54,036 nt of DNA from Mycobacteriales bacterium (GCA_038256525.1 JBBSKF010000005.1:1-54036), one strand, 5' to 3'. Shown: positions 14,653 to 54,036, numbered from the stretch's first letter. Program-made: numbers and translations. The notes: generated from the letters alone by a model not told the origin.

Positions 14653-17163
<2,511 letters not shown>

Positions 17164-17179
17164 CGCCGACCACTCGGCC

Positions 17180-18052
17180 TCAACTGCCGGGCAGCGCGTA
17201 GCGCCCGTCCGGCAGCGGGTCGACCAGACCGTCGTCGACCAGTGCGTCCAGCGCCCTCGCGCGCTGAACCGGCTCGTCCCAGACCGCGGCGAGCCGGTCG
17301 GCCCTGACCGGGCCGGCGCTGTCGCGCAGCACCTGCAGGAGCCGGCCGCGTACCTGCCGGTCGGTGCCTGCCCAGGCCTGCGGACGCCGTACCGGGCTGT
17401 CCAGAGTCGGCTTGCCGGCCTTCAGCCAGGCGCAGGCCGGACGTAGCGGGCAGCTCGGGCACCGCGGCGCGCGGGCGGTGCAGACCAGCGCGCCGAGCTC
17501 CATGAACGCGATGGAGGCGGTGGCCGCGTCCTCGGGGTCGACCGGCAGCAGCTGCTCCACCAGGGCGAGGTCGCGGCGGGTGACCGGCGCATCCGCGCGG
17601 CCCTCGACCGCCCGGGCCACCACCCGGCGGACGTTGGTGTCGACCACCGGCACCCGTTGGCGGTAGGCGAAGGCGGCGACGGCCCGGGCCGTGTAGTCGC
17701 CGACTCCGGGAAGTGCGAGAAGCTCCACGACCGTACGCGGCAGCTCGCCGCCCGGCCGCTGCGCGACGGCCACGGCAGCGGCGTGCAGCCGCAGGGCCCG
17801 GCGCGGGTAACCGAGCCGGCCCCACAGCCGCACCGCCTCGCCCGGTGCGTCGGCTGCCAGGTCCGCCGGCGCCGGCCAGCGCTCGAGCCAGGCGGTGTAG
17901 ACCGGCAGGACGCGCGCCACGGGCGTCTGCTGCAGCATCACCTCGCTGACCAGGACCGCCCACGGGCTCACCCCCGGCCGCCGCCACGGCAGGTCGCGGG
18001 CGGCCTGGGCGTACCAGCCGGTGACGGTGTCGGCCAGCCCGGTGTTCCCCAC
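17180..18052 (-). CDS. mutY: A/G-specific adenine glycosylase (short actinobacterial type)
   Basis: RDLPWR, SEVMLQQT, LGYPRRA, LPGVGDYTA, VDTNV, Fe-S motif C-x6-C-x2-C-x5-C; TACGCT 6 nt before GTG 18052. Confidence 0.92.
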   Translation of the reverse strand: MGNTGLADTVTGWYAQAARDLPWRRPGVSPWAVLVSEVMLQQTPVARVLPVYTAWLERWPAPADLAADAPGEAVRLWGRLGYPRRALRLHAAAVAVAQRPGGELPRTVVELLALPGVGDYTARAVAAFAYRQRVPVVDTNVRRVVARAVEGRADAPVTRRDLALVEQLLPVDPEDAATASIAFMELGALVCTARAPRCPSCPLRPACAWLKAGKPTLDSPVRRPQAWAGTDRQVRGRLLQVLRDSAGPVRADRLAAVWDEPVQRARALDALVDDGLVDPLPDGRYALPGS

Positions 18053-18152
18053 GCTCCGAGCGTAGGGTCCCTCCTGGCCCGCCCGCCCCTCAGTGATCAA
18101 CGGGCCTGACAGTGGTGCCGGAAGCTTGTGTCGGGCGGCTAGGCTGCCCAGG

Positions 18153-18773
18153 ATGGCGCTGCACTGGCGGCCGGTCGGTCCCGAGCCCGCCCAGACGTAC
18201 TGGCGGCGGCGTGCCGCGCTCGTGATCACCCTCGCGCTGCTGCTCTTCCTGATCACTTCGGTGACCGGTCGGGGCGACGATGACCGGTTGGCGTCCGGGG
18301 AGCCGTCCCCCTCCGCCTCGACGTCGACCTCCGACCCCACGGCGCCGCCGTCCCCGTCAGCCGCACCGCGAGCTGCCTCCGCCGACCCCTGCCCGCCGGC
18401 CGGGCTGAAGATCGACTCGAATTCTGACAAGGACAGCTATCCCGCTGGCGGCCGGCCACAGCTCGAGCTGCGGGTCACCAACACCGGCTTGGCCCCGTGC
18501 ACCCTCGACCTGGGTCAGTCCGCGGTCGAGTTCCTGATCTTCTCCGGCCCGGACCGCATCTGGTCCAGCGATGACTGCGCCCCGGGCGGAGCGGCGAAGC
18601 CGACCACCCTGGAGCCGGGCAAGCCGGTCCCGACCCGGCTGACCTGGGCGGGGCGACGCTCGTTGCCCGGGTGCGCCGGACCCAAGGCGCAAGCGCTGCC
18701 AGGCACCTATCGCATCACGGGGCGAATCGGTGACCTGCAGGCCGAGGGCGGGTCCTTCTCCCTGACCGGCTGA
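18153..18773 (+). CDS. Conserved actinobacterial membrane protein (Rv3587c-like)
   Basis: PVGP...YWRRR followed by a TM helix, Pro/Ser linker and Cys-containing domain (RIWSSDDC, PGTY); usual neighbour of mutY/disA. Confidence 0.7.
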   Translation: MALHWRPVGPEPAQTYWRRRAALVITLALLLFLITSVTGRGDDDRLASGEPSPSASTSTSDPTAPPSPSAAPRAASADPCPPAGLKIDSNSDKDSYPAGGRPQLELRVTNTGLAPCTLDLGQSAVEFLIFSGPDRIWSSDDCAPGGAAKPTTLEPGKPVPTRLTWAGRRSLPGCAGPKAQALPGTYRITGRIGDLQAEGGSFSLTG

Positions 18774-18895
18774 GGACTCAAGCCCCCGAGCAGGCCCGTC
18801 GACACAGGGAGGGCCGGGCCTCCCGCCGGCGGACGGGAGCGACCGGTGCCGGACGACCAGGACGTCGCCGCCGTGCGCCAGTGCGGGCGCCCGGC

Positions 18896-19987
18896 GTGAC
18901 CGCCTTCTTGCGCGCCACCGTCACGGTGGTCGTCGTGGACGACTCCGCCCGTCAGCGGCGATCCCTGCGTGCCGCCGTCGAGGCCGACGGCGACCTCACC
19001 GTCGTGGGGGAGGCCCGCAATGGTCCTGAAGCCGTCGCTCTCGTGGCGAGGCTCCGCCCCCGGGTGGTGCTGATGGACCTCGACCTACCGGCAATGACCG
19101 GCATCGACGCGATCGAGCGCATCATGTCGGCCAGCCCCACGGCGATCGTCGTCTACGGCTCGTCGCCGGCCGGCGACAACAGGGTCGACGCGCTGGAGGC
19201 GCTGGCCGCGGGCGCTGTGGACGTGCTCGCCGCGCCCGGGCCGGGCAACAGCGCGGACGACGCCGCGGCGCTGCGGGCCGCCCTTCGCGTCGCCGCTCGG
19301 GTGCGCGTGATCACGCATCCCCGCGGCCGGCTCCGGTTGCAGGGCATGGGCGCCGCCGCCCCGTCGCTGCCCGAGGCTGCCAGGCACCCGACCGCTGAGC
19401 CAGACCGCGGCGATGTCCGCCTGGTGGCGATCGGTGCTTCGACGGGCGGGCCACAGGCGCTTCTCACGCTGCTCGCCGGGCTCCCCGCAGATCTCGAGCA
19501 GGCGGTCCTGGTCGTGCAGCACATGGCGGCCGGGTTCATCCCCGGTCTCGCCTGCTGGCTCGACGGGCTGGTCGCGCTGCCGGTCGGGGTGGGGGCGACC
19601 GGCTGCCGACTTGCTCCCGGCACCGTCACCATCGCGCCGAGCGGCAGCAACCTGCTGCTCTCGGACGACCGGCTGCGCGTGGTGTGCAAAGCGCCGGAGA
19701 GCAGGCAGTTCCACGTGCCGGGGATCGACGCCACCTTCGCCAGCATCGCCGCGGTGCTGGGCGATCGCGCCATCGGCGTGCTGCTGACCGGCATGGGCCG
19801 GGACGGCGCCGCGGGCCTGCTGGCCATGCGCCGGCGGGGCGCCCTGACGATCGGCCAGGACGAGGCGACCAGCGCCGTCTACGGCATGCCCGCCGCCGCG
19901 TGCGCCCTCGACGCCGTGGAGCGCCAGCTCGCGCTCGATCGGATCGCGCCTGCGGTGCTCGGCGCAGTCGGCCGGGCGTTGGCATGA
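18896..19987 (+). CDS. cheB: Chemotaxis methylesterase (receiver plus catalytic domain)
   Basis: VVDDS, LMDLDLP, IGASTGGP, VQHM, PGIDATF, LTGMGRDGA, QDEATSAVYGMP. Start uncertain (18881 or 18896). Confidence 0.92.
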   Translation: MTAFLRATVTVVVVDDSARQRRSLRAAVEADGDLTVVGEARNGPEAVALVARLRPRVVLMDLDLPAMTGIDAIERIMSASPTAIVVYGSSPAGDNRVDALEALAAGAVDVLAAPGPGNSADDAAALRAALRVAARVRVITHPRGRLRLQGMGAAAPSLPEAARHPTAEPDRGDVRLVAIGASTGGPQALLTLLAGLPADLEQAVLVVQHMAAGFIPGLACWLDGLVALPVGVGATGCRLAPGTVTIAPSGSNLLLSDDRLRVVCKAPESRQFHVPGIDATFASIAAVLGDRAIGVLLTGMGRDGAAGLLAMRRRGALTIGQDEATSAVYGMPAAACALDAVERQLALDRIAPAVLGAVGRALA

Positions 19988-46384: not shown

Positions 46385-47797
46385 TCAGGCGGGTGGCAGG
46401 GCGGCGAGCTGTGCCTGCAGCCAGGCCGCAGGAGGTAGCGCGCTCGCCGCCTTGGCCAGCCGCTCCGACCGCTCGGCCCGAACCGCCGTGGGTGTGGAAA
46501 GCGCCTCGTGCAACGCCGCCGCGGTTTGGGTCACGTCGTAGGGGTTGACCAGGTGGGCGTCCGCGCCGAGCTCGTCGGCGGCCCCGGCCTGCCGCGACAG
46601 CACCAGCGAGACGCCGCGCTCGGACAGCACCGGGCCTTCCTTGGCGACCAGGTTCATCCCGTCGCGCAGCGGATTGACCAGCAGCACGTCGGCCAGGGTG
46701 AAGGCTGCGAGCGAGCGAGGGTAGTCGTCACTGACCTCCAGATGCACTGGCAGCCAAACGCCTTCGGCGAACTGCTCGTTGACCTCACGGGCGACCCGCT
46801 GAACGGCGCCGGTGTAGGCGCGGTATTCCGGCAGGTCGTGACGTGAGGGGTAGGCGAACGCGAGGTGCACCACCCGGTGCCGCCACTGCGGCCTGGTCTC
46901 CAGCAGCTCGCGGTAGGCCTCCAGTCCGCGCACGATGTTCTTGCTCAGCTCGGTCCGGTCGATGCGCAGCAGCAGCTGCCGGTCCCCGACCAGCTCGCGC
47001 AGCAGCGGCAGCCGGCCCTGGACGTCCGGTCGCGCAACGCAGGCTCGCATCTGTTCAGCGTCAATGCCGAGGGGGTGCACCGACAAGCGGGTGGTCCGCC
47101 CCTCGAAGGTGACCCCCTCCCCCGGGACCCAGCGGGCGCCGAGGACCTCGACGCAGCAGCGGCCGAAGGCATCCGCCCACCGCGGGGAGTGGAAGCCGAC
47201 CGCGTCCGCACCGAGCATCCCCAGCAGCACCTCGCGGGCGATGTCGTCCGGCAGCAGGCAGAAGTACTCCGGCGGCGCCCATGGGGTGTGGCTGAAGTGG
47301 CCGATCCGTAGGTCCGGCCGGCGCTCGCGCAGCTGCCGCGGGGTGAGCGCGAGGTGGTAGTCCTGCACGAGCACGGCTGCCCGCGGCGCCGCACTGCGGG
47401 CCAGGGCCTCGGCGAAGGCGTCGTCGTAGTCCCGGTAGGCCGCCCATTCGCGCCGGGTCCTGGCGTCGAAGACCGGAGCGGTGGGTGTGTCGTAGAGCAG
47501 GTGGGCGACGAACCACAAGGTGGCGTTGGCCACCCCGTTGTAGGCGCGGTCGAAGGTCACCGGGTCGATGTCGAGCATCTCCACGCCCGGCAACACCCGA
47601 CCCGAAGCCGCAGCTGCCGCCACCCGATCGGCAGCGGAGAGCGCAGCGCACACCCACAGCGCCGTCCCCGGCGCGGTTGCTCCCGCCACCGCCGAAACCA
47701 GTCCACCGCCACCCCGCTGGGCGACCAGTCCGCCGCGGCCGTCCTCGACGTAGGAGACCGGCCCGCGATTGGAGGCCAGCAGGAGCGGGACGGTCAC
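46385..47797 (-). CDS. otsA: Trehalose-6-phosphate synthase
   Basis: SNRGP, GGLVSA, QDYHL, HFSHTPW, DRTELSKN, DGMNLVAKE, VNPYD. Confidence 0.95.
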   Translation of the reverse strand: MTVPLLLASNRGPVSYVEDGRGGLVAQRGGGGLVSAVAGATAPGTALWVCAALSAADRVAAAAASGRVLPGVEMLDIDPVTFDRAYNGVANATLWFVAHLLYDTPTAPVFDARTRREWAAYRDYDDAFAEALARSAAPRAAVLVQDYHLALTPRQLRERRPDLRIGHFSHTPWAPPEYFCLLPDDIAREVLLGMLGADAVGFHSPRWADAFGRCCVEVLGARWVPGEGVTFEGRTTRLSVHPLGIDAEQMRACVARPDVQGRLPLLRELVGDRQLLLRIDRTELSKNIVRGLEAYRELLETRPQWRHRVVHLAFAYPSRHDLPEYRAYTGAVQRVAREVNEQFAEGVWLPVHLEVSDDYPRSLAAFTLADVLLVNPLRDGMNLVAKEGPVLSERGVSLVLSRQAGAADELGADAHLVNPYDVTQTAAALHEALSTPTAVRAERSERLAKAASALPPAAWLQAQLAALPPA

Positions 47798-47893
47798 GGG
47801 CGCAGATTATCGACGGGAAGCCGATCGCGCCGGGCGCTTCGCGCAGCGGGCCGCGCTGCCCCGTACACTCGATGTCACAACTGCACAGCACCG

Positions 47894-48004
47894 CTCATCC
47901 CGAGGGGCACCAGGGACACGGCCCGATGACGCCCCGGCAACCAGCGTTCTTCCTGCGCCAGGTGCCACTTCCGTCCCGCGCGACGTCCGCGTGGGAAAGA
48001 TGAG
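47894..48004 (+). promoter_or_regulatory. SAM-I (S-box) riboswitch, probably translational
   Basis: CTCATC...GAG GGGC..GGGA..GGCCCGATGA.GCCCC GGCAACC...GGTGCC..TCC...GAAAGATGAG; the 3' strand of P1 overlaps the GAGGAG ribosome-binding site. Confidence 0.9.
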
Positions 48005-48017
48005 GAGACCCGATCTT

Positions 48018-49277
48018 GTGACCACGCTCGACCTTCCCGCCGCCTTCGCCGACTCCCCGGCCCGCGCGCTCGTCTGTCGCGAGTGTCGACATGAAGTGCC
48101 ACTCTCGCCGGTGCACGTCTGCGACCAGTGCTTCGCACCGCTCGAGGTGGGCTACGACCTGGACCGGATGCGACAGGTCACCCGCGCGAGCATCGAGGCC
48201 GGGCCGCACAGCATCTGGCGTTACGCCGGGCTGCTGCCCGCCGGTCAGGACCTCGCCACCCGCGTCGACCTCGGCACCGGCATGACGCCGCTGCGCAAGG
48301 CGAACAACCTCGGCAAGGTGCTCGGTATGGACAACCTGTGGGTCAAGGACGACAGCGCCAACCCGACCCACTCGTTCAAGGACCGCGTCGTGTCGGTGGC
48401 GCTGTCGGCCGCGCGGGCGTTCGGCTACACGACGGTGTCCTGCGCCTCGACCGGCAACCTCGCCAACTCGGTGGCCGCCCACGCCACCCAGGCCGGCCTT
48501 CGCGCTGTCGTGTTCATCCCGAACGACCTGGAGCAGGGCAAGGTCGTGCAGACAGCGGTCTACGGCCAGACACTCGTCGCCGTTGAAGGCAACTACGACG
48601 ACGTCAACCGGCTGTGCAGCGAGATTGCCGAGAACGAGGAGTGGGCGTTCGTCAACGTGAACGTCCGGCCCTACTACGCCGAGGGTTCCAAGACCTTGGG
48701 GTACGAAGTGGCCGAGCAGCTCGGTTGGCGCCTGCCGCAGCAGGTGGTCATCCCGATGGCATCCGGTTCGCTGCTCACCAAGGTGGACAAGGCCTTTCGG
48801 GAGCTGGTCACCCTCGACCTCGTCGAGGCCTCCCCCGTCAAGGTGTACGGCGCGCAGGCAACCGGCTGCTCGCCCATCGCGACCGCGTTCGAGAACGGCT
48901 GGGACACCGTCCAGCCCGTAAAGCCCAAGACGATCGCCCGGTCGCTCGCGATCGGCAACCCGGCCGACGGGCCGTACGCCCTTGACGCCGTCCGCCGCAC
49001 CGGTGGCGCGATGGGCCACGTGTCCGACGCGCAGGTCGTCGCAGGCATCCGGTTGCTGGCCTCGACGGAAGGGTTGTTCGCCGAGACCGCCGGCGGCGTG
49101 ACGGTCGCGACGCTGCGCCAGCTGCTCGAGCGCGGCCAGATCGACCCCACGGCCGAGACGGTCCTGTACAACACCGGCGACGGGCTCAAGACGCTGGACG
49201 CGGTGGCCGGCGAGGTCGGACCGACCGCGACGATCGCCCCGTCGTACAACGCTTTTGTACGCACCGGCCTGGCCTAG
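48018..49277 (+). CDS. thrC: Threonine synthase-family PLP enzyme under SAM-riboswitch control
   Basis: CxxC..CxxC N-terminus, SIWRY, NPTHSFKDR, ASTGN, EGSKT..YE, ETAGG, TGDGLK. The real reaction may not be threonine synthesis. Confidence 0.85.
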   Translation: MTTLDLPAAFADSPARALVCRECRHEVPLSPVHVCDQCFAPLEVGYDLDRMRQVTRASIEAGPHSIWRYAGLLPAGQDLATRVDLGTGMTPLRKANNLGKVLGMDNLWVKDDSANPTHSFKDRVVSVALSAARAFGYTTVSCASTGNLANSVAAHATQAGLRAVVFIPNDLEQGKVVQTAVYGQTLVAVEGNYDDVNRLCSEIAENEEWAFVNVNVRPYYAEGSKTLGYEVAEQLGWRLPQQVVIPMASGSLLTKVDKAFRELVTLDLVEASPVKVYGAQATGCSPIATAFENGWDTVQPVKPKTIARSLAIGNPADGPYALDAVRRTGGAMGHVSDAQVVAGIRLLASTEGLFAETAGGVTVATLRQLLERGQIDPTAETVLYNTGDGLKTLDAVAGEVGPTATIAPSYNAFVRTGLA

Positions 49278-49309
49278 CGGCTGCCGTGGCCGAGCAGGAG
49301 ATGGGGGAG

Positions 49310-49339
49310 AGAGTCGGTAACGGCGCCCTTAGCTGCTGG
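49310..49339 (+). repeat. Boundary motif copy A (dif-like core, 8-nt centre)
   Basis: AGAGTCGGTAA-CGGCGCCC-TTAGCTGCTGG. Confidence 0.45.
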
Positions 49340-49448
49340 GCTCGTCGAGCCGGGATGCCGCCGCCGTAGGCGTGGCCAGAAGGCCTGTCACCGAGACTGT
49401 CGCCACGAGCGCCGCAAGACAGGCAAGGGCGGGGTGCGCCTCACGGTG

Positions 49449-50054
49449 TCACGGTGTGATTCCGGCGATGCTCACACCGTCGCAGGAAACCGTGTCAGCT
49501 GCCAAAGCCCGATTCACCTTCCACTGGCTACCCTCGAAGAGCATCTCGAACTGGCCCGGGACGATCTTGTACGGCTCAAGCGGCGTGCCACCGGGTCGGT
49601 CGAGCACGTAACCATCTTCGACCGAGCACACGAGCACATTCCGCTGCGTGTCAGACACACCCTGAACCCCAAGCACGGCAACCGGCGAGATGGGCGGGTA
49701 GTACTTCTCCCGCTCTCCTCCGTAGAGACTCTCGTGGAAGCCGGCCCGTCGAGCCGTACTCCTGGCTAGCAGCGCCGGCAGCTGTAAGTTCTTCGTATTG
49801 ACTGCCTCGGCCACCGCGGCGAGGTAGGCCCGTAGCCCCAGCACGGCCGGGTCAGCCTCGATGGCCGACAGCGGTGACGGACTCGGGGACGGTGAGGGGC
49901 TCGGCGAGGGCACCGGGGTCGGCTGCGCTGATGGTGAATCGGCGTCACTGGCAGCCGGCGGGGTGGCGGTGGCGAGCGGCTCGTCGCCGCCGCACGCAAC
50001 GACGGACAGGCCGACGGACAGGCACAGTGCTGCTACGCGGAGCCCTGAACTCAC
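49449..50054 (-). CDS. Hypothetical lipoprotein with Pro/Ser linker
   Basis: Lipobox VVAC, (PS)n tract, Cys pair, C-terminal ..WKV..; start GTG 50054. Confidence 0.75.
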   Translation of the reverse strand: MSSGLRVAALCLSVGLSVVACGGDEPLATATPPAASDADSPSAQPTPVPSPSPSPSPSPSPLSAIEADPAVLGLRAYLAAVAEAVNTKNLQLPALLARSTARRAGFHESLYGGEREKYYPPISPVAVLGVQGVSDTQRNVLVCSVEDGYVLDRPGGTPLEPYKIVPGQFEMLFEGSQWKVNRALAADTVSCDGVSIAGITP

Positions 50055-50141
50055 CCGACTGCCCCTCCCGACGTAAGGCGCTTGCTCCCTCCACGCGAGA
50101 GTAGAGGCTACGCCCTTCGGGCCGTGGTACACGGGTGATCG

Positions 50142-50169
50142 ACCGACGCGAACGGCCCCTATCCGCCGC
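50142..50169 (+). repeat. Boundary motif copy B
   Basis: ACCGACGCGAA-CGGCCC-CTATCCGCCGC. Confidence 0.5.
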
Positions 50170-50359
50170 TGTGCTGGGTGCGGCGATGACTACACAGGAC
50201 GCCGGCCGAGCGTCTCGCGAGCGGGTCTCCCGCCTACCGCTCTTACTCCCGCCGCTTTGGCTTGCGCCTCGGGCACCCCAGCGTGCCTGTTGTCGGGATG
50301 CCGTGAGGGTCTCACGAGCGAGTACCGGCCTATCGGCTCTTCAGGGGGTGCGACGCCGG

Positions 50360-50853
50360 CTACACCGACACCAGTTGCAACTGCCACCAGCCGACGTCGT
50401 GCCAATGGCCGAACTTGAAGCCGACCTTCTCGTAGACGCCCACAGGCAGGAAGTCCATCGCTTCGTGCAGCCGCACGCTGCCACGGTTGGGTAGCGCGAT
50501 CCCGGCATGCGCCCTCCGGTAGCCGTGCTCCCGCAGGAGGGGGAGCAGTGTCGAGTAGGCAAGCGCCCGATACCACGCCCGGTCCCGCCGGGGTCGACGT
50601 AGAGAGAGCAGTCGACCGCCCAGCGGTAGGCGGCTCGCGCCCTGTGCCGCGATGCGTACGCGTACCCGACGATGTGGCCGGCGGGGTCCTCCGCGACCAA
50701 GCACGGTAGCCGAGGCGGCACCTTCATCCGGGTCGCCATCTGGAGCCCGTCGGGCGCCACGTCCTCGAACGACGCTACCGACTCCTCGACGTAGACGCGG
50801 TAGATCTCGGCGATCACCGGCGCGTCGCCGAGTAGGGCGTCACGAACGCGCAC
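50360..50853 (-). pseudogene. Frameshifted phosphinothricin N-acetyltransferase-like GNAT (Pat/YncA family)
   Basis: N-half (IY..YV...ASFE...GYAYA...RAAY.W....YV...GRGIG) is in ORF 50341..50853; C-half (AGIALPN..SVRLHE..F..VG...VGFKFG.WHDVGWWQ) is in ORF 50360..50704; shift near 50560. Confidence 0.85.
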
Positions 50854-50950
50854 GGGACGAAGGTTACTGCGGCCACGGCAACAGGGACGTCTCGCGGGAC
50901 GGCGTGGAACGACGACGACGCTGACCGCTCACATCTGAAAGGCTGCCGTC

Positions 50951-51448
50951 ATGGTTCGGGTCATCCGCGAGCGGACTGAGGCGGACATCTACGACGTGGC
51001 GTTTCTCGGTGTATTGGCTGCGGCTCATCGGGACGGGGGGAAACCGCCGGACGCTCCTCCGCCTCGGACCCTTGCGGCCTGGCGCACCGTCTTTGCTCGG
51101 CCCGGCTCTTGGGGACTCGTCTGTCTGGCAGGTGACCTCCTAGCCGCTGAGGTGAGTGGGTTCGCCATCGACGAGGCCGAGCAACCTGCGGCCAAGTCGC
51201 GACGGCATTACATATCGTCCCTCAGTGTCCGTCCTGACGTTTGGGGTCAGGGCTTGGGCAGGACCATTCTGAACGCGGCGGTGGACTACTTGCGCAGGCA
51301 TCAGGTCGCCGAGGTGGAGGCGTGGGTCGTGCGCGACAATGCCCGCGCAAAGTCGGTGTACGGGCTCTGTGGTTTCGTCGAGACCGGACGCAGCTCCGCC
51401 CACGGCGACACGCTTACAGACGAGATGCTCCGCAGGTTGAGCGCATAG
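50951..51448 (+). CDS. GNAT family N-acetyltransferase
   Basis: LSVRPDVWGQGLG, WVVRDNARA..VY..CGF. Confidence 0.82.
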   Translation: MVRVIRERTEADIYDVAFLGVLAAAHRDGGKPPDAPPPRTLAAWRTVFARPGSWGLVCLAGDLLAAEVSGFAIDEAEQPAAKSRRHYISSLSVRPDVWGQGLGRTILNAAVDYLRRHQVAEVEAWVVRDNARAKSVYGLCGFVETGRSSAHGDTLTDEMLRRLSA

Positions 51449-51474
51449 CCGCCGGTTGCCACGAGCCGCAGGGA

Positions 51475-51502
51475 ACCGTGGAGAACGGCCCTTAGCCGCG
51501 GA
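51475..51502 (+). repeat. Boundary motif copy C
   Basis: ACCGTGGAGAA-CGGCCC-TTAGCCGCGGA. Confidence 0.55.
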
Positions 51503-51724
51503 CCCGCCGGCCCCGCCCACGGCACTGAGCGGGTTCGCCCCTTGATCGTGAGGTGCAACGCGCGGCAGCTCACGCACCACTCGTTTCCGGTCGGCGCCCT
51601 GGCCCGGCCTTGCGCTGCATGTGCCCAACGATGCCTAGTCAACCCCGCCTGTGCAGGCGGGAGCCCTTCCACGGGCGCCGAGGCCCTCGAGCTCGCCTTG
51701 CGCTACGCCGACGGGGCCGCACTG

Positions 51725-51748
51725 CTAACAGACCGCCTAACAGACCGC
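51725..51748 (+). repeat. Direct repeat CTAACAGACCGC x2
   Basis: Exact 12-bp tandem copies in intergenic DNA. Confidence 0.75.
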
Positions 51749-51779
51749 CGCCCTATGGCGACGAGTACCGTCCCGGCGC

Positions 51780-52232
51780 ATGGCACGTCTGACCTGGCAT
51801 CAACGGGAGCAGCTCCTGCTCGAGGCGATCCGCGACCTCGAAGACGAGCTCCTCGGCCAGTTGCAGAACATGCACCTAACCGAACACACCGGTCTGGGGG
51901 CGACCGACGTCGCACTCGGCCTGCAGGCGCTGCTCGACGGCGACTTCATCGCCGGCGGAGACATCAGCAGCGCTGAGGACCCGCCCGGAAGCGCGCAGCT
52001 CCTCGGCATCCGACTCCGGCCCGCCGGCCGCGTCCACGTCCGTCAGTGGCCCGGCGACGACGCCGCCGCAGCGCTGCTCGAAGTCCTCGACGACGCCATC
52101 GAACGCACAGACGACCCTGAGCAGCGCGGCGCACTCGAGCAGACACGCCGCGGCCTCAAGGGACTCGCGGGCAAGGTCCTGACCGAGGTCGCCGTCGGCT
52201 ACGCCAAGCGCGTCTCCGGCCTCGACGCGTAG
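51780..52232 (+). CDS. Hypothetical protein (possible winged-helix N-terminus)
   Basis: Protein-like composition, GC-rich third positions, TACCGT 8 nt before the ATG. Confidence 0.7.
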   Translation: MARLTWHQREQLLLEAIRDLEDELLGQLQNMHLTEHTGLGATDVALGLQALLDGDFIAGGDISSAEDPPGSAQLLGIRLRPAGRVHVRQWPGDDAAAALLEVLDDAIERTDDPEQRGALEQTRRGLKGLAGKVLTEVAVGYAKRVSGLDA

Positions 52233-52439
52233 TCGCCGGAACCGCACAGGAACTTGCAGCACGATGTCACGCGACCAGTCGCGCGCACTACAGGCAGGAC
52301 TAGTGACTCACGGCTGCAACGATCCAGAGCAGGAGCCTCGCCAGTTTCAGCGAGTGACAGCGCGATACTCATGCGGCGGCGAACATGCCTACCCGATCGT
52401 CCTGAGCGCGCAGCCGAACGACCCATTGACGATGAGAGC

Positions 52440-52742
52440 GTGGAGGGCGCAAATTTGGCAGAGGCTACTGCTGCTGATGCTTACGAGTTAGAAGTTCGGG
52501 GTCGCCGAACGAATGCACTGAGGACTCCGCTAGGAATCCTTCTAAGCATCGCGTCCTTCTCCGACATTGACCTCAACAGGTACTACGTGGTCATCACTCG
52601 CCGCGATACAGGTCAAGAGGTAGGCGTTCTCGATATGGGGCGTGGGCAGGCAGCCTCCTATGGGGCTGGCGAGCTCATGCGCGAGAAGGCTGCCTATATG
52701 TCGCCTGAGTCCTTCTTGAAGGAATACTCGTTCCGTCTATAA
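52440..52742 (+). CDS. Hypothetical protein (lower GC)
   Basis: 3' part of ORF 52254..52742; GACGAT 6 nt before GTG 52440; atypical codon usage. Confidence 0.5.
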   Translation: MEGANLAEATAADAYELEVRGRRTNALRTPLGILLSIASFSDIDLNRYYVVITRRDTGQEVGVLDMGRGQAASYGAGELMREKAAYMSPESFLKEYSFRL

Positions 52743-52852
52743 CAGGCAGCATAGTTTTTTTGCGCGGGAGCGGATAGCTTGTATCGGCCCATAGGCTCGG
52801 CCCCGCCGGCCTCGTAGTCGCGGAAGGCCGGTGTCGAGGTACGGGAGGCTCC

Positions 52853-53281
52853 ATGGGCATTACTCTTTCGGACGTAAAGCGTCTGAGGCTCGAGTATTCG
52901 CAGTTTCGACTCACGGGGCTCGAGCGACCCGGGGACGACCCCTCCGCGCCCACCTACGAACCTGACGCCCTATGGCTTCGACACAACCAACCAAGCGGAT
53001 ACGCACGAGTGACAGTAACAACTGGCACAGAGGCCGAGGGGCCAGGCGATGACTGGTATGGCCACCAGACACATTTTGTCAAAGCAAGTTCGTCGATCGG
53101 AATCCAGACCTGGGACGGAGGGCGAGTCGCTCAGTTCCACATTGCACCGGGGAACTACAAAATGATCTGCGCGTTTCGGCCGGCCACAATTACTGTCGAG
53201 CTAGAACTGACCTCTCTTGAGGAAGGCGTGGCCACGAGCGAACAGCGAATCCACTTCGTGCCCGTCGACTTCGATCACTAG
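52853..53281 (+). CDS. Hypothetical protein (lower GC; weak resemblance to immunity-like beta proteins)
   Basis: GGGAGG ribosome-binding site; YSQF, W, PG.Y pattern. Confidence 0.65.
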   Translation: MGITLSDVKRLRLEYSQFRLTGLERPGDDPSAPTYEPDALWLRHNQPSGYARVTVTTGTEAEGPGDDWYGHQTHFVKASSSIGIQTWDGGRVAQFHIAPGNYKMICAFRPATITVELELTSLEEGVATSEQRIHFVPVDFDH

Positions 53282-53317
53282 GGCGCCGGGTGGTCCCACC
53301 AAGCCTCACCCGGTGCC
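53282..53317. terminator. Hairpin between convergent genes
   Basis: GGCGCCGGGTG-N14-CACCCGGTGCC (one G-U pair), no U-tract. Confidence 0.45.
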
Positions 53318-53345
53318 GAAGGCGGGAACGGCTCTTATGACTCCC
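53318..53345 (+). repeat. Boundary motif copy D (supplies the TAA stop of the GNAT gene)
   Basis: GAAGGCGGGAA-CGGCTC-TTATGACTCCC. Confidence 0.55.
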
Positions 53346-53817
53346 CCGGGCTGGAGGCCATCGCCACGCCGAAGCGTCCTCGTCCCGCGGCTGCTACGTG
53401 GAAGCCGCACTTCATGTACAGGCGCAGGGCGACTGTGTTGCGCAGGTGCACGTTCAGCACCAGCACGGGGTGGCCGTGCATCCTCGCGTGTTCCAGCAGC
53501 GCCAGTAGAAGTGCCGTGCCCGCACCACCCCCACGTGCGTCCCGTTCAACGGCCATCGCGAGCTCGGGCGCTGTCGGTAGGCTCGGGACCACTGGGATCG
53601 TGCCTGCTCGCCACCATGCCGCTCCGACATTCCGGCCTGAGGACGTTGTTGCGACGAGCGCGCACCCGGCATTTGCCGGAAGCAGTACGGTCACCGCCTC
53701 GGCGTCCGGTGGCGGTAGGGGACGATCGTCCAACGTGGCAGCGTGACGAGCCATGTCGCGGATGAAGTCAGCATCCTCGGCTGCGGCAACCCGCACGTTG
53801 ACCTCAGTCGTCTGCAT
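53335..53817 (-). CDS. GNAT family N-acetyltransferase
   Basis: GAAWWR, PELAMAV...ARGGGAG..LL, LNV...N.VALRLY.KCGF. Confidence 0.85.
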   Translation of the reverse strand: MQTTEVNVRVAAAEDADFIRDMARHAATLDDRPLPPPDAEAVTVLLPANAGCALVATTSSGRNVGAAWWRAGTIPVVPSLPTAPELAMAVERDARGGGAGTALLLALLEHARMHGHPVLVLNVHLRNTVALRLYMKCGFHVAAAGRGRFGVAMASSPGES

Positions 53818-53882
53818 CGTGCGAGTCTGGCTGCCTCGAGGCGGCGTGGGAAGGCGTTAAAGCGTGTGCACTCATGACCTCG

Positions 53883-53910
53883 ACGGATGAACACGGCACT
53901 TACTCGCCGT
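53883..53910 (+). repeat. Boundary motif copy E (weaker)
   Basis: ACGGATGAACA-CGGCAC-TTACTCGCCGT. Confidence 0.35.
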
Positions 53911-54036
53911 TGGGCCGCTGCGGGCGAAGTCCAGGCTGGTGGTAGCGCCCTGGCACGCGTTCATCTCGCAGCCCCTGCACCTGACGGGTTGCACCGTCGC
54001 TGCCGCGAACAAGCAGCGTGTCGCCGTCAACCCAGA

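Follow-up and report, generated by a model that had tools for sequence, protein, structure and literature searches.

The end of contig C5 behind thrC

The window analysed here is the whole of contig C5 (54,036 nt) of the draft genome of a Mycobacteriales bacterium (G000; 225 contigs, 3.46 Mb, 71% GC). Its last conserved gene is the threonine synthase gene thrC, and the part of the contig behind it, referred to below as the tail, contains short genes in mixed orientation separated by copies of a directional repeat of about 45 nt, which is the subject of this report. Counting from thrC, the open reading frames (ORFs) are a lipoprotein-like gene and an apparently frameshifted GNAT acetyltransferase gene on the minus strand, a GNAT gene and ORFs of 150, up to 162 and 142 aa on the plus strand, a third GNAT gene on the minus strand and an ORF cut by the contig end. 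The array is preceded by thrC and a trehalose-phosphate-synthase-like ORF.

The tail array is accessory DNA. In 40 of the 41 related genomes searched, DNA matches that reach the end of thrC stop at its stop codon (window 49248–49292), and the only further matches in related genomes are distant GNAT and lipoprotein paralogues; the tallies over relatives take in genomes G021 and G030, and no specific claim rests on either. Homologues of G000 contigs C109 and C46 come after thrC in four relatives, and the array is therefore an insertion between thrC and the genes of C109, a contig whose start falls inside a DUF222/HNH gene. Along the tail the GC content varies between 0.58 and 0.73, in agreement with the unevenness mentioned in the preliminary description, and the codon usage of the tail ORFs is atypical, with poor scores under a codon model trained on the long genes of G000. 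The same description had called the genes unrelated, which needs correcting inasmuch as three of them encode GNAT acetyltransferases; these are too diverged to match one another at E 1e-6.

The closest relative, G005, whose thrC region is 91% identical, carries the same repeat at the same locus with different cargo: a full copy in the same orientation lies 236 nt after thrC, and behind it come a second, weaker copy, a module of two overlapping genes and a DUF222/HNH gene.

A directional repeat and its arrays

Seven sites with a recurring core had been listed in the tail and read as degenerate dif-like sites. The pattern AACGGCNCYTA occurs three times in the window (50151, 51484 and 53327), always on the plus strand; the mean over 100 shuffled sequences was 0.07, and none of them reached three. 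There are 12 occurrences on both strands of the 3.46-Mb genome, three of which belong to the C5 tail. A looser pattern, AACGGCNCNTA, matches 26 times in the genome, with three matches in the C5 tail and five on contig C29, all on the plus strand, and the flanks of the C29 matches resemble those of copy B. The repeat unit of about 45 nt consists of a conserved 5' arm (..GTGATCCACCGACGGGAA), the hexamer CGGCNC, the triplet YTA and a GC-rich 3' arm; the consensus line of eleven aligned copies is GGnnGnTCCACCGACGGGAACGGCCCnTAnCCnCCGCC, and GTGATC precedes it in several copies.

A sequence-only covariance model built from 11 copies (R1) was run over both strands of the window without filtering, and six of the seven listed sites came out as ranks 1–6, all on the plus strand of the last 4.8 kb. 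Ranks 4–6 (52785, 49305 and 53893) are absent from the model seed; by our arithmetic, three independent best matches would all fall on the plus strand of the 4.76-kb tail with a chance of ~(4759/108072)^3, or ~9e-5. At the seventh site, 50331, R1 finds no match at E ≤ 10. The likeness of copies B and C pointed out earlier amounts to 80% identity over 25 nt. The features of the tail are collected in Table 1.

Table 1. Features of thrC and the tail of contig C5 (positions in the window; bits and E-values of repeat copies refer to model R1 unless another program is named)
Feature	Position	Strand	Evidence and remarks
thrC (threonine synthase)	48018..49277	+	Pfam PALP, E 1.5e-69; last conserved gene
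Repeat copy A, weak (listed earlier as 49318)	49305..49336	+	9.5 bits, E 0.067, rank 5
Module 1: secreted or lipoprotein-like gene	49449..50132	-	ORF, translation; GC3 > GC1 and GC2
Repeat copy B, strong, full length	50122..50177	+	37.1 bits, E 9e-11; nhmmer E 9e-7
Gene-less segment between copy B and the 50332 site	50178..50331		Second variant in source sample
Weak listed site ATCGGCTCTTC	50332..50342	+	R1-negative; module boundary by contig homology
GNAT acetyltransferase, apparently frameshifted (or assembly error)	50341..50853	-	PF00583 and PF13420 in different frames
GNAT acetyltransferase	50951..51448	+	PF00583, E 1.3e-13
Repeat copy C	51468..51512	+	26.0 bits; begins 20 nt past GNAT stop codon
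150-aa module gene, possibly small winged-helix protein	51780..52232	+	Host-like codon score 45
Low-GC ORF, up to 162 aa	52254..52742	+	ORF; no family in Pfam, NCBIfam and PADLOC scans
Module boundary without detectable repeat	52262..52282		GC falls from ~0.70 to 0.58; no R1 match
Repeat copy, core and 3' arm only (listed earlier as 52782)	52785..52809	+	11.2 bits, E 0.02, model positions 35–59
142-aa module gene, rare	52853..53281	+	5 homologues among 5.8 billion proteins
Repeat copy D	53299..53353	+	23.6 bits; 18 nt past 142-aa gene
GNAT acetyltransferase	53335..53817	-	PF00583, E 5.5e-11
Repeat copy E, weak, core and 3' arm	53893..53917	+	9.3 bits, E 0.081

In the whole of G000, R1 has 15 matches at E ≤ 0.1, including three in the C5 tail and eight at C29:2–15 kb, each set on one strand; the other four occur singly, on contigs C33, C90, C103 and C94. 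Five of the G000 matches lie outside the seed, three of them on C29 and on the same strand. Contig C29 thus carries a second co-oriented array of the same repeat. Clear arrays are present in three of the 20 species of the genus (G000, G005 and G019) and in none of the other 58 family genomes, while single marginal R1 matches were obtained in ten others of the 78 family genomes. G019 has five co-oriented copies within 3 kb of contig C8, next to DUF4265 and DUF7668 genes, and three copies on contig C13, in a tRNA-Ala island with an integrase and copies of the insertion sequences (IS) IS630 and ISL3. Searches for the exact 21-nt pattern retrieved six stretches in public genome contigs and two in metagenome contigs, among which only two actinobacterial metagenome-assembled genome records (Mycobacteriales and Actinomycetota) gave good R1 scores. 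The pattern CACCGACGGGAACGGCCC, allowed two mismatches in the 78 genomes, was too noisy, a control pattern matching almost as often.

The first alternative to be weighed is that the motif arose by chance or through misassembly. Its definition came only once the sites had been noticed, the DNA is GC-rich and CGGC common in it, with 928 occurrences of AACGGCNC alone genome-wide, and the assembly is a draft in 225 contigs. Against this, copies outside the seed top the R1 scan, the same 45-nt unit is found in two other species, and an independent assembly of the sequencing run X1 reproduces 50293–53925 in one contig with no differences; chance is refuted for practical purposes, and we give this explanation next to no credence.

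Within each array all the copies stand on one strand, namely six on C5, nine on C29 (a weak one counted), five on G019:C8, three on G019:C13 and two in G005. Successive copies are 0.17–1.7 kb apart, apart from one gap of 6.7 kb, so at least two co-oriented sites mark cassette boundaries at kilobase spacing. A gene end lies within ~60 nt on the 5' side in 10 of the 12 G000 copies with R1 E ≤ 0.01 (three on C5 and nine on C29), and it is either the stop of a plus-strand gene or the start of a minus-strand gene; the exceptions are C29:2506 and copy D, whose 142-aa neighbour was missed by the ORF set used, being present in the ORF listing. The gene on the 3' side is separated from the repeat by as much as 290 nt of non-coding DNA. 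The motif of copy D supplies the stop codon of the adjoining gene, as described earlier: the TAA at 53335–53337, read on the minus strand, ends the GNAT gene. The repeat is thus a true family, the copies of which are clustered, co-oriented and located at gene boundaries irrespective of the direction of the genes.

The copies are diverged (about 60–90% identity) and some are halved. Only the core and 3' arm remain in the weak copies at 52785 and 53893, and only the 5' arm and core in one copy in G019:C13 and one in C90; such halves would look like hybrid products of crossover in the core, and decay would give the same picture. The fifth base of CGGCNC tracks the next triplet, A or T being followed by TTA in five of six aligned copies and C mostly by CTA or ATA. 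Similarity between copies never extends beyond ~85 nt, which indicates a short, stand-alone unit without a longer parent element. DNA folding of nine copies was no better than that of shuffled sequences (z −0.93 to +1.17), RNAalifold on 26 aligned copies predicted a consensus structure with no pairs, and an Rfam scan of C5:44.5–54 kb and C29:1–20 kb gave no match over the repeat. The repeat was also considered as a peptide-coding element and rejected, the frame from GTG in the arm reading open in some copies and closed in others; likewise, inspection revealed no conservation at the −10 position expected of a promoter of the extracytoplasmic function (ECF) or PafBC type.

The conserved arm of ~25 bp, being long, asymmetric and unstructured, would suit a DNA-binding protein, and it is conceivable that the repeat is a regulatory site, i.e., an operator or a 'stoperator'-like silencer placed between acquired genes, with a regulator carried by the islands. 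Repressor sites that are oriented and stand at the ends of genes are known from cluster A mycobacteriophages. In G000, five copies directly precede minus-strand genes, and the products of the C29 island include an ECF sigma factor and an excisionase-type helix-turn-helix (HTH) protein. The orientation of the copies, however, ignores the genes, following plus-strand gene stops as often as preceding minus-strand gene starts; nothing conserved was seen on inspection downstream of GGAAC that could form an ECF promoter, no regulator common to the arrays was found, and the breaks of homology at the core, which are described below, would be left unexplained. We consider a regulatory role improbable.

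The preliminary description had explained the sites as degenerate dif sites used by the host XerC/XerD, in the manner of pdif modules or Xer-exploiting elements. The genus dif is single-copy in all five relatives searched (loci L111–L115) and reads ATCGCCGATAAT-CGACA(T/C)-TATGTCA.., with zero control matches; it was not found in the G000 draft, presumably owing to an assembly gap. Two strong chromosomal tyrosine recombinases of G000, with 155 bits (C17) and 153 bits (C115) to PF00589, may be XerC and XerD, judging from score alone; G005 and G019 have two comparably scoring matches each, and a third in G019 reaches 150.6 bits. The breakpoints flank a 6-bp CGGCNC preceded by AA and followed by YTA and, in the register proposed, 13–15 of 28 positions match the genus dif in five of 18 copies. 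Over all registers, the match falls to random expectation, with 12–16 of 28 positions for the 18 copies; the null distribution has its mean at 13.5 and its 99th percentile at 16, a value which no copy exceeds, and the best register (ungapped 28-mers) varies from copy to copy. Instead of inverted 11-bp arms there is one conserved asymmetric 5' arm of 25 nt, the side of the XerD arm being the least conserved, and all the sites are direct, as opposed to the alternating sites of pdif modules. The likeness to dif is not borne out, and use of the sites by XerC/XerD seems very improbable. Nothing ties the sites to these or any other tyrosine recombinases, so the tyrosine-recombinase capture proposed earlier is still a guess. 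An origin of the repeat from a tRNA att site was rejected as well, the 3' end of the tRNA-Ala by the G019:C13 integrase matching at 14 of 24 positions against a null mean of 14.8.

Breakpoints, cargo and candidate enzymes

The stretch 47500–54036 was compared with Logan contigs from four public sequencing runs of soil or environmental samples. X1 is probably the source run of G000, and X2, X3 and X6 come from other studies, those of X3 and X6 being different; tail stretches without cover in X2, X3 and X6 were not counted as evidence. Two X1 contigs overlap at 53896–53925, and one of them extends 2.4 kb past the window end.

Among the matches listed, single array modules were found in X2, X3 and X6 at 90–98% identity. 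An X6 contig matches rightwards from 49346, and its 233 nt to the left are unlike the window; rightward matches with unlike left sides also begin at 50333 in an X3 contig and at 50331 in an X6 contig. A 1060-nt X3 contig matches only 51492–52262, both outer sides being unlike the window, and 51492 is the base directly after the copy C core AACGGCCC (51484–51491). Another X3 contig matches 52282–52423 and is unlike the window to the left, and a 543-nt X2 contig spans exactly 52785–53325, from repeat core to repeat core, over its whole length. Among the matches listed, six ends run into unlike sequence, and four of them (49346, 50331, 50333 and 51492) are no more than 15 nt away from a repeat. 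The contig homology ends at or beside the CGGCNC hexamer, where the preliminary description had placed the 6-bp centre of its sites, and, as far as assembled contigs can tell, other metagenomes contain single modules in different genomic surroundings, the homology breaking off at the core of the repeat. The breakpoint pattern itself is only suggestive, since the contigs are short and the matches are only those listed.

The segment without genes that separates copy B from the 50332 site exists in more than one form. The depth of X1 is 110 in the bin 50116–50333 and 37–57 in the adjoining bins (about double), and variants were called in X1 at 50170, 50206 and 50323; the segment is also present in X2, X3 and X6, which have common variants at 50206–50258. 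Neither strand showed an RNA-folding signal (z +1.2 and +0.1), and no Rfam family was assigned. In the apparently frameshifted GNAT gene, the N-terminal half matches PF00583 in one frame and the C-terminal half PF13420 in another, that of 50360–50704; an X3 contig lacks 34 nt of this gene (50460–50493) relative to the window.

A module with overlapping small genes for 137 and 136 aa, possibly a toxin–antitoxin-like pair, is shared at 91% identity by G000 C103:178–1001 and the thrC locus of G005 (L017 621–1444). These are different loci, the module on C103 adjoining core genes other than those in G005. The DUF4265 genes of the two G019 arrays share 57% amino acid identity and have the repeat on the same side. 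Within G000, no paralogues of the modules were found except for a 120-nt IS3 fragment.

Most cargo genes belong to no family. Those that can be named are a glyoxalase, DUF1990, a YxiG-like protein (YxiG_2, E 2e-73) and a Hen1–Pnkp RNA-repair pair on C29, DUF4265, DUF7668 and an isochorismatase in G019, and the three GNATs on C5. Module 1 likely starts near 50054, before a signal peptide with a Cys lipobox that can be read from the translation, and has no Pfam family. The 150-aa protein has no family in Pfam, NCBIfam or PADLOC; in a protein atlas it falls among actinobacterial hypothetical proteins, where GntR- or YjcQ-like clusters are leads only. When 401 genomes of the order were sampled, the 142-aa gene was found in one, which is G000, and its product is ComJ-like by language-model atlas features only (0.95), with no Pfam support. 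No locus for the 150-aa protein or for a 65%-identical relative of the 142-aa protein was found in public genome contigs. Orphan-immunity content of the cargo is only a lead, because PADLOC recognised none of 28 cargo proteins and the ComJ likeness lacks Pfam support. Among the literature records listed, none was relevant to an actinobacterial cassette system or to the cargo families.

Searches for an enzyme agree with the earlier statement that the window contains no integrase: PF00589 has no match on C5, and the Pfam scan of the window revealed none. G000 has seven PF00589 matches, none on C5, C29, C33, C90 or C103. Two extra G000 recombinases that were tried are not shared with G019. On C29, at 16319–19021, between the array and the core genes and 2–4 kb beyond the last repeat, lie the ECF sigma factor (SigE family), the excisionase-type HTH protein and a 60-aa tyrosine integrase fragment, which suggests a decayed integrative island. 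Serine recombinases were found in neither G000 nor G005. The Y1/RAYT transposase (RAYT, REP-associated tyrosine transposase; REP, repetitive extragenic palindrome) was detected in none of G000, G019 and G005, its control being found in six of 14 genomes; the Y2 HUH transposase PF04986 (IS91/ISCR type) had no match in the three genomes either, a search made uninformative by a control that matched nowhere.

Several observations concern the surroundings of the arrays. The Hen1–Pnkp pair at C29 7481–11697 forms one large (6.7 kb) module in the array, beside an IS3 fragment, and copies 78–79% identical to it occur in G001 and twice in G019. C29:5589–5958 is a 370-nt element with a 107-aa ORF of no family, 81–87% identical in G005 and in three places of G019. 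The DUF222/HNH-type gene (PF02720) is multi-copy in G000 (C72:1719–3347; copies 80–90% identical in amino acids), with fragments at the ends of C15, C22, C40, C52, C68, C90, C103, C109 and C128; as so many G000 contigs end in it, the gene evidently interrupts the assembly. The thrC island has one copy at its far side, likewise in G005. A link of the repeat to DUF222/HNH genes was rejected, the array-bearing G019 having only two distant homologues, both far from the arrays. Directly upstream of thrC, at 47892–48006 (+), the Rfam scan found its sole match, a SAM riboswitch (RF00162, 67.5 bits, E 6e-14), which suggests that threonine synthase is under S-adenosylmethionine control in this lineage.

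Proposed cassette capture and its counterparts

The explanation we favour, tentatively and with somewhat less than even confidence, is that the tail is the start of a mobile gene-cassette array after thrC, in which one copy of a lineage-specific asymmetric repeat of ~45 bp, always in direct orientation, delimits each module. What stands of the preliminary description is the array itself, with small accessory modules, a motif at their boundaries and a single orientation; its dif/Xer mechanism is not supported. Modules would be gained, and perhaps lost, when a repeat carried by incoming DNA recombines conservatively with a resident one, with the crossover probably in or beside CGGCNC. A conservative crossover would regenerate the repeat on each side, and all copies would therefore keep one direction. 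The long 5' arm may be the binding site of the recombinase or an accessory protein, and the enzyme would be encoded elsewhere in the genome and act in trans. The cargo genes are probably under their own promoters, because they are in mixed orientation and travel along with 60–290 nt of non-coding DNA.

A number of points weigh against cassette capture. The repeat, on our inspection, lacks the dyad symmetry typical of tyrosine-recombinase core sites. No recombinase adjoins the arrays on C5, C29 or G019:C8 (in the last case, within 10 kb), and none specific to the three array-bearing genomes was found, two G000 tyrosine recombinases having been tried. The homology of the two-gene module between C103 and G005 ends 420–570 nt from the repeat present at each locus, not at the repeat; the C29:5589–5958 element has no strong repeat beside it in G005 or G019, and the boundary at 52262–52282 has none, though it coincides with the drop in GC. 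The breakpoint evidence comes from short Logan contigs at 90–98% identity, among the matches listed, and repeats by themselves also break assemblies. Finally, a Mantel test for separate histories of the two arms gave r 0.14 (p 0.10), and its control, with r 0.17, indicates that it had no power.

The main rival explanation is a passive, lineage-specific intergenic repeat, either resembling REPs or miniature inverted-repeat transposable elements or a fossil, among which genes are shuffled by homologous recombination with no cassette machinery; we regard it as unlikely, with a chance well worth keeping in view. The lack of a recombinase beside the arrays, the divergence and halving of the copies, the boundaries without a repeat and the abundance of IS fragments in the islands (IS3, IS256, IS630 and ISL3) are all in keeping with it. 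It does not account, however, for the single orientation in all five arrays, which for 25 copies has a random chance of ~1 in 10^6 (2^-20, by our arithmetic), and there is no parent element beyond ~85 nt; moreover, 30–45 nt at 75% identity make a poor substrate for RecA. Even a passive repeat would mark hypervariable hotspots in an uncultured lineage.

Among known systems, REPs and bacterial interspersed mosaic elements with RAYTs, and the miniature elements derived from IS200/IS605, are likewise short intergenic repeats without coding capacity. REPs typically number hundreds of copies spread through the genome, whereas the present repeat has ~15 copies per genome clustered in islands, no palindrome or hairpin and no Y1 transposase in G000, G019 or G005, features which also speak against its being a passive repeat. 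The pdif modules of Acinetobacter, whose sites alternate in orientation, are similar to the proposed cassettes in having a short site on each side of a module of one gene, and a recombinase gene located elsewhere; the sites described here differ in being direct, in having one long asymmetric arm and in resembling dif at chance level only. The rAID-1 orphan-immunity clusters of Bacteroidales have a 5' XerD-like recombinase and co-directional genes, according to Ross et al. (bioRxiv 10.1101/471110). The cargo of the arrays includes the YxiG-like protein and the protein that is ComJ-like by atlas features only, which may be a point of likeness; the arrays differ in mixed gene orientation and in the absence of an adjacent recombinase (thrC side searched).

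The textbook example of a system that stockpiles single genes is the integron. Its attC site is an imperfect palindrome folding into a hairpin with paired R''-L''/L'-R' boxes, and clusters of attC sites lacking an integrase are known as CALINs, an adjacent IntI being needed for a complete integron only. The arrays share with integrons and CALINs compact single-gene modules of unrelated function, each with one co-oriented site at the gene boundary, cargo varying among relatives, uneven GC content and, as in CALINs, no integrase nearby. They differ in mixed gene orientation and in sites with no hairpin or consensus structure; the GTTRRRY/RYYYAAC core was not seen in the repeat alignment, and no integron integrase was found here. 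The survey of Cury et al. 2016 (PMC4889954) found no complete integrons among actinobacterial genomes. The arrays described above look like a type of cassette platform that has not been described in the phylum. A broader proposal, which we put forward as a doubtful possibility, is that they belong to a cassette-capture platform of Actinomycetota with linear, double-stranded, asymmetric sites of ~45 bp, crossover at CGGCNC and a recombinase encoded elsewhere, possibly with immunity or resistance genes as cargo. High-GC Gram-positive soil bacteria would then trade single genes by a route of their own, with a different kind of site, and the repeat could be used as a probe for cassette cargo in soil metagenomes; functionally, the platform would be an analogue of the integron, evolved independently of IntI and attC, by which rare single genes accumulate at chromosomal hotspots, the end of thrC among them.

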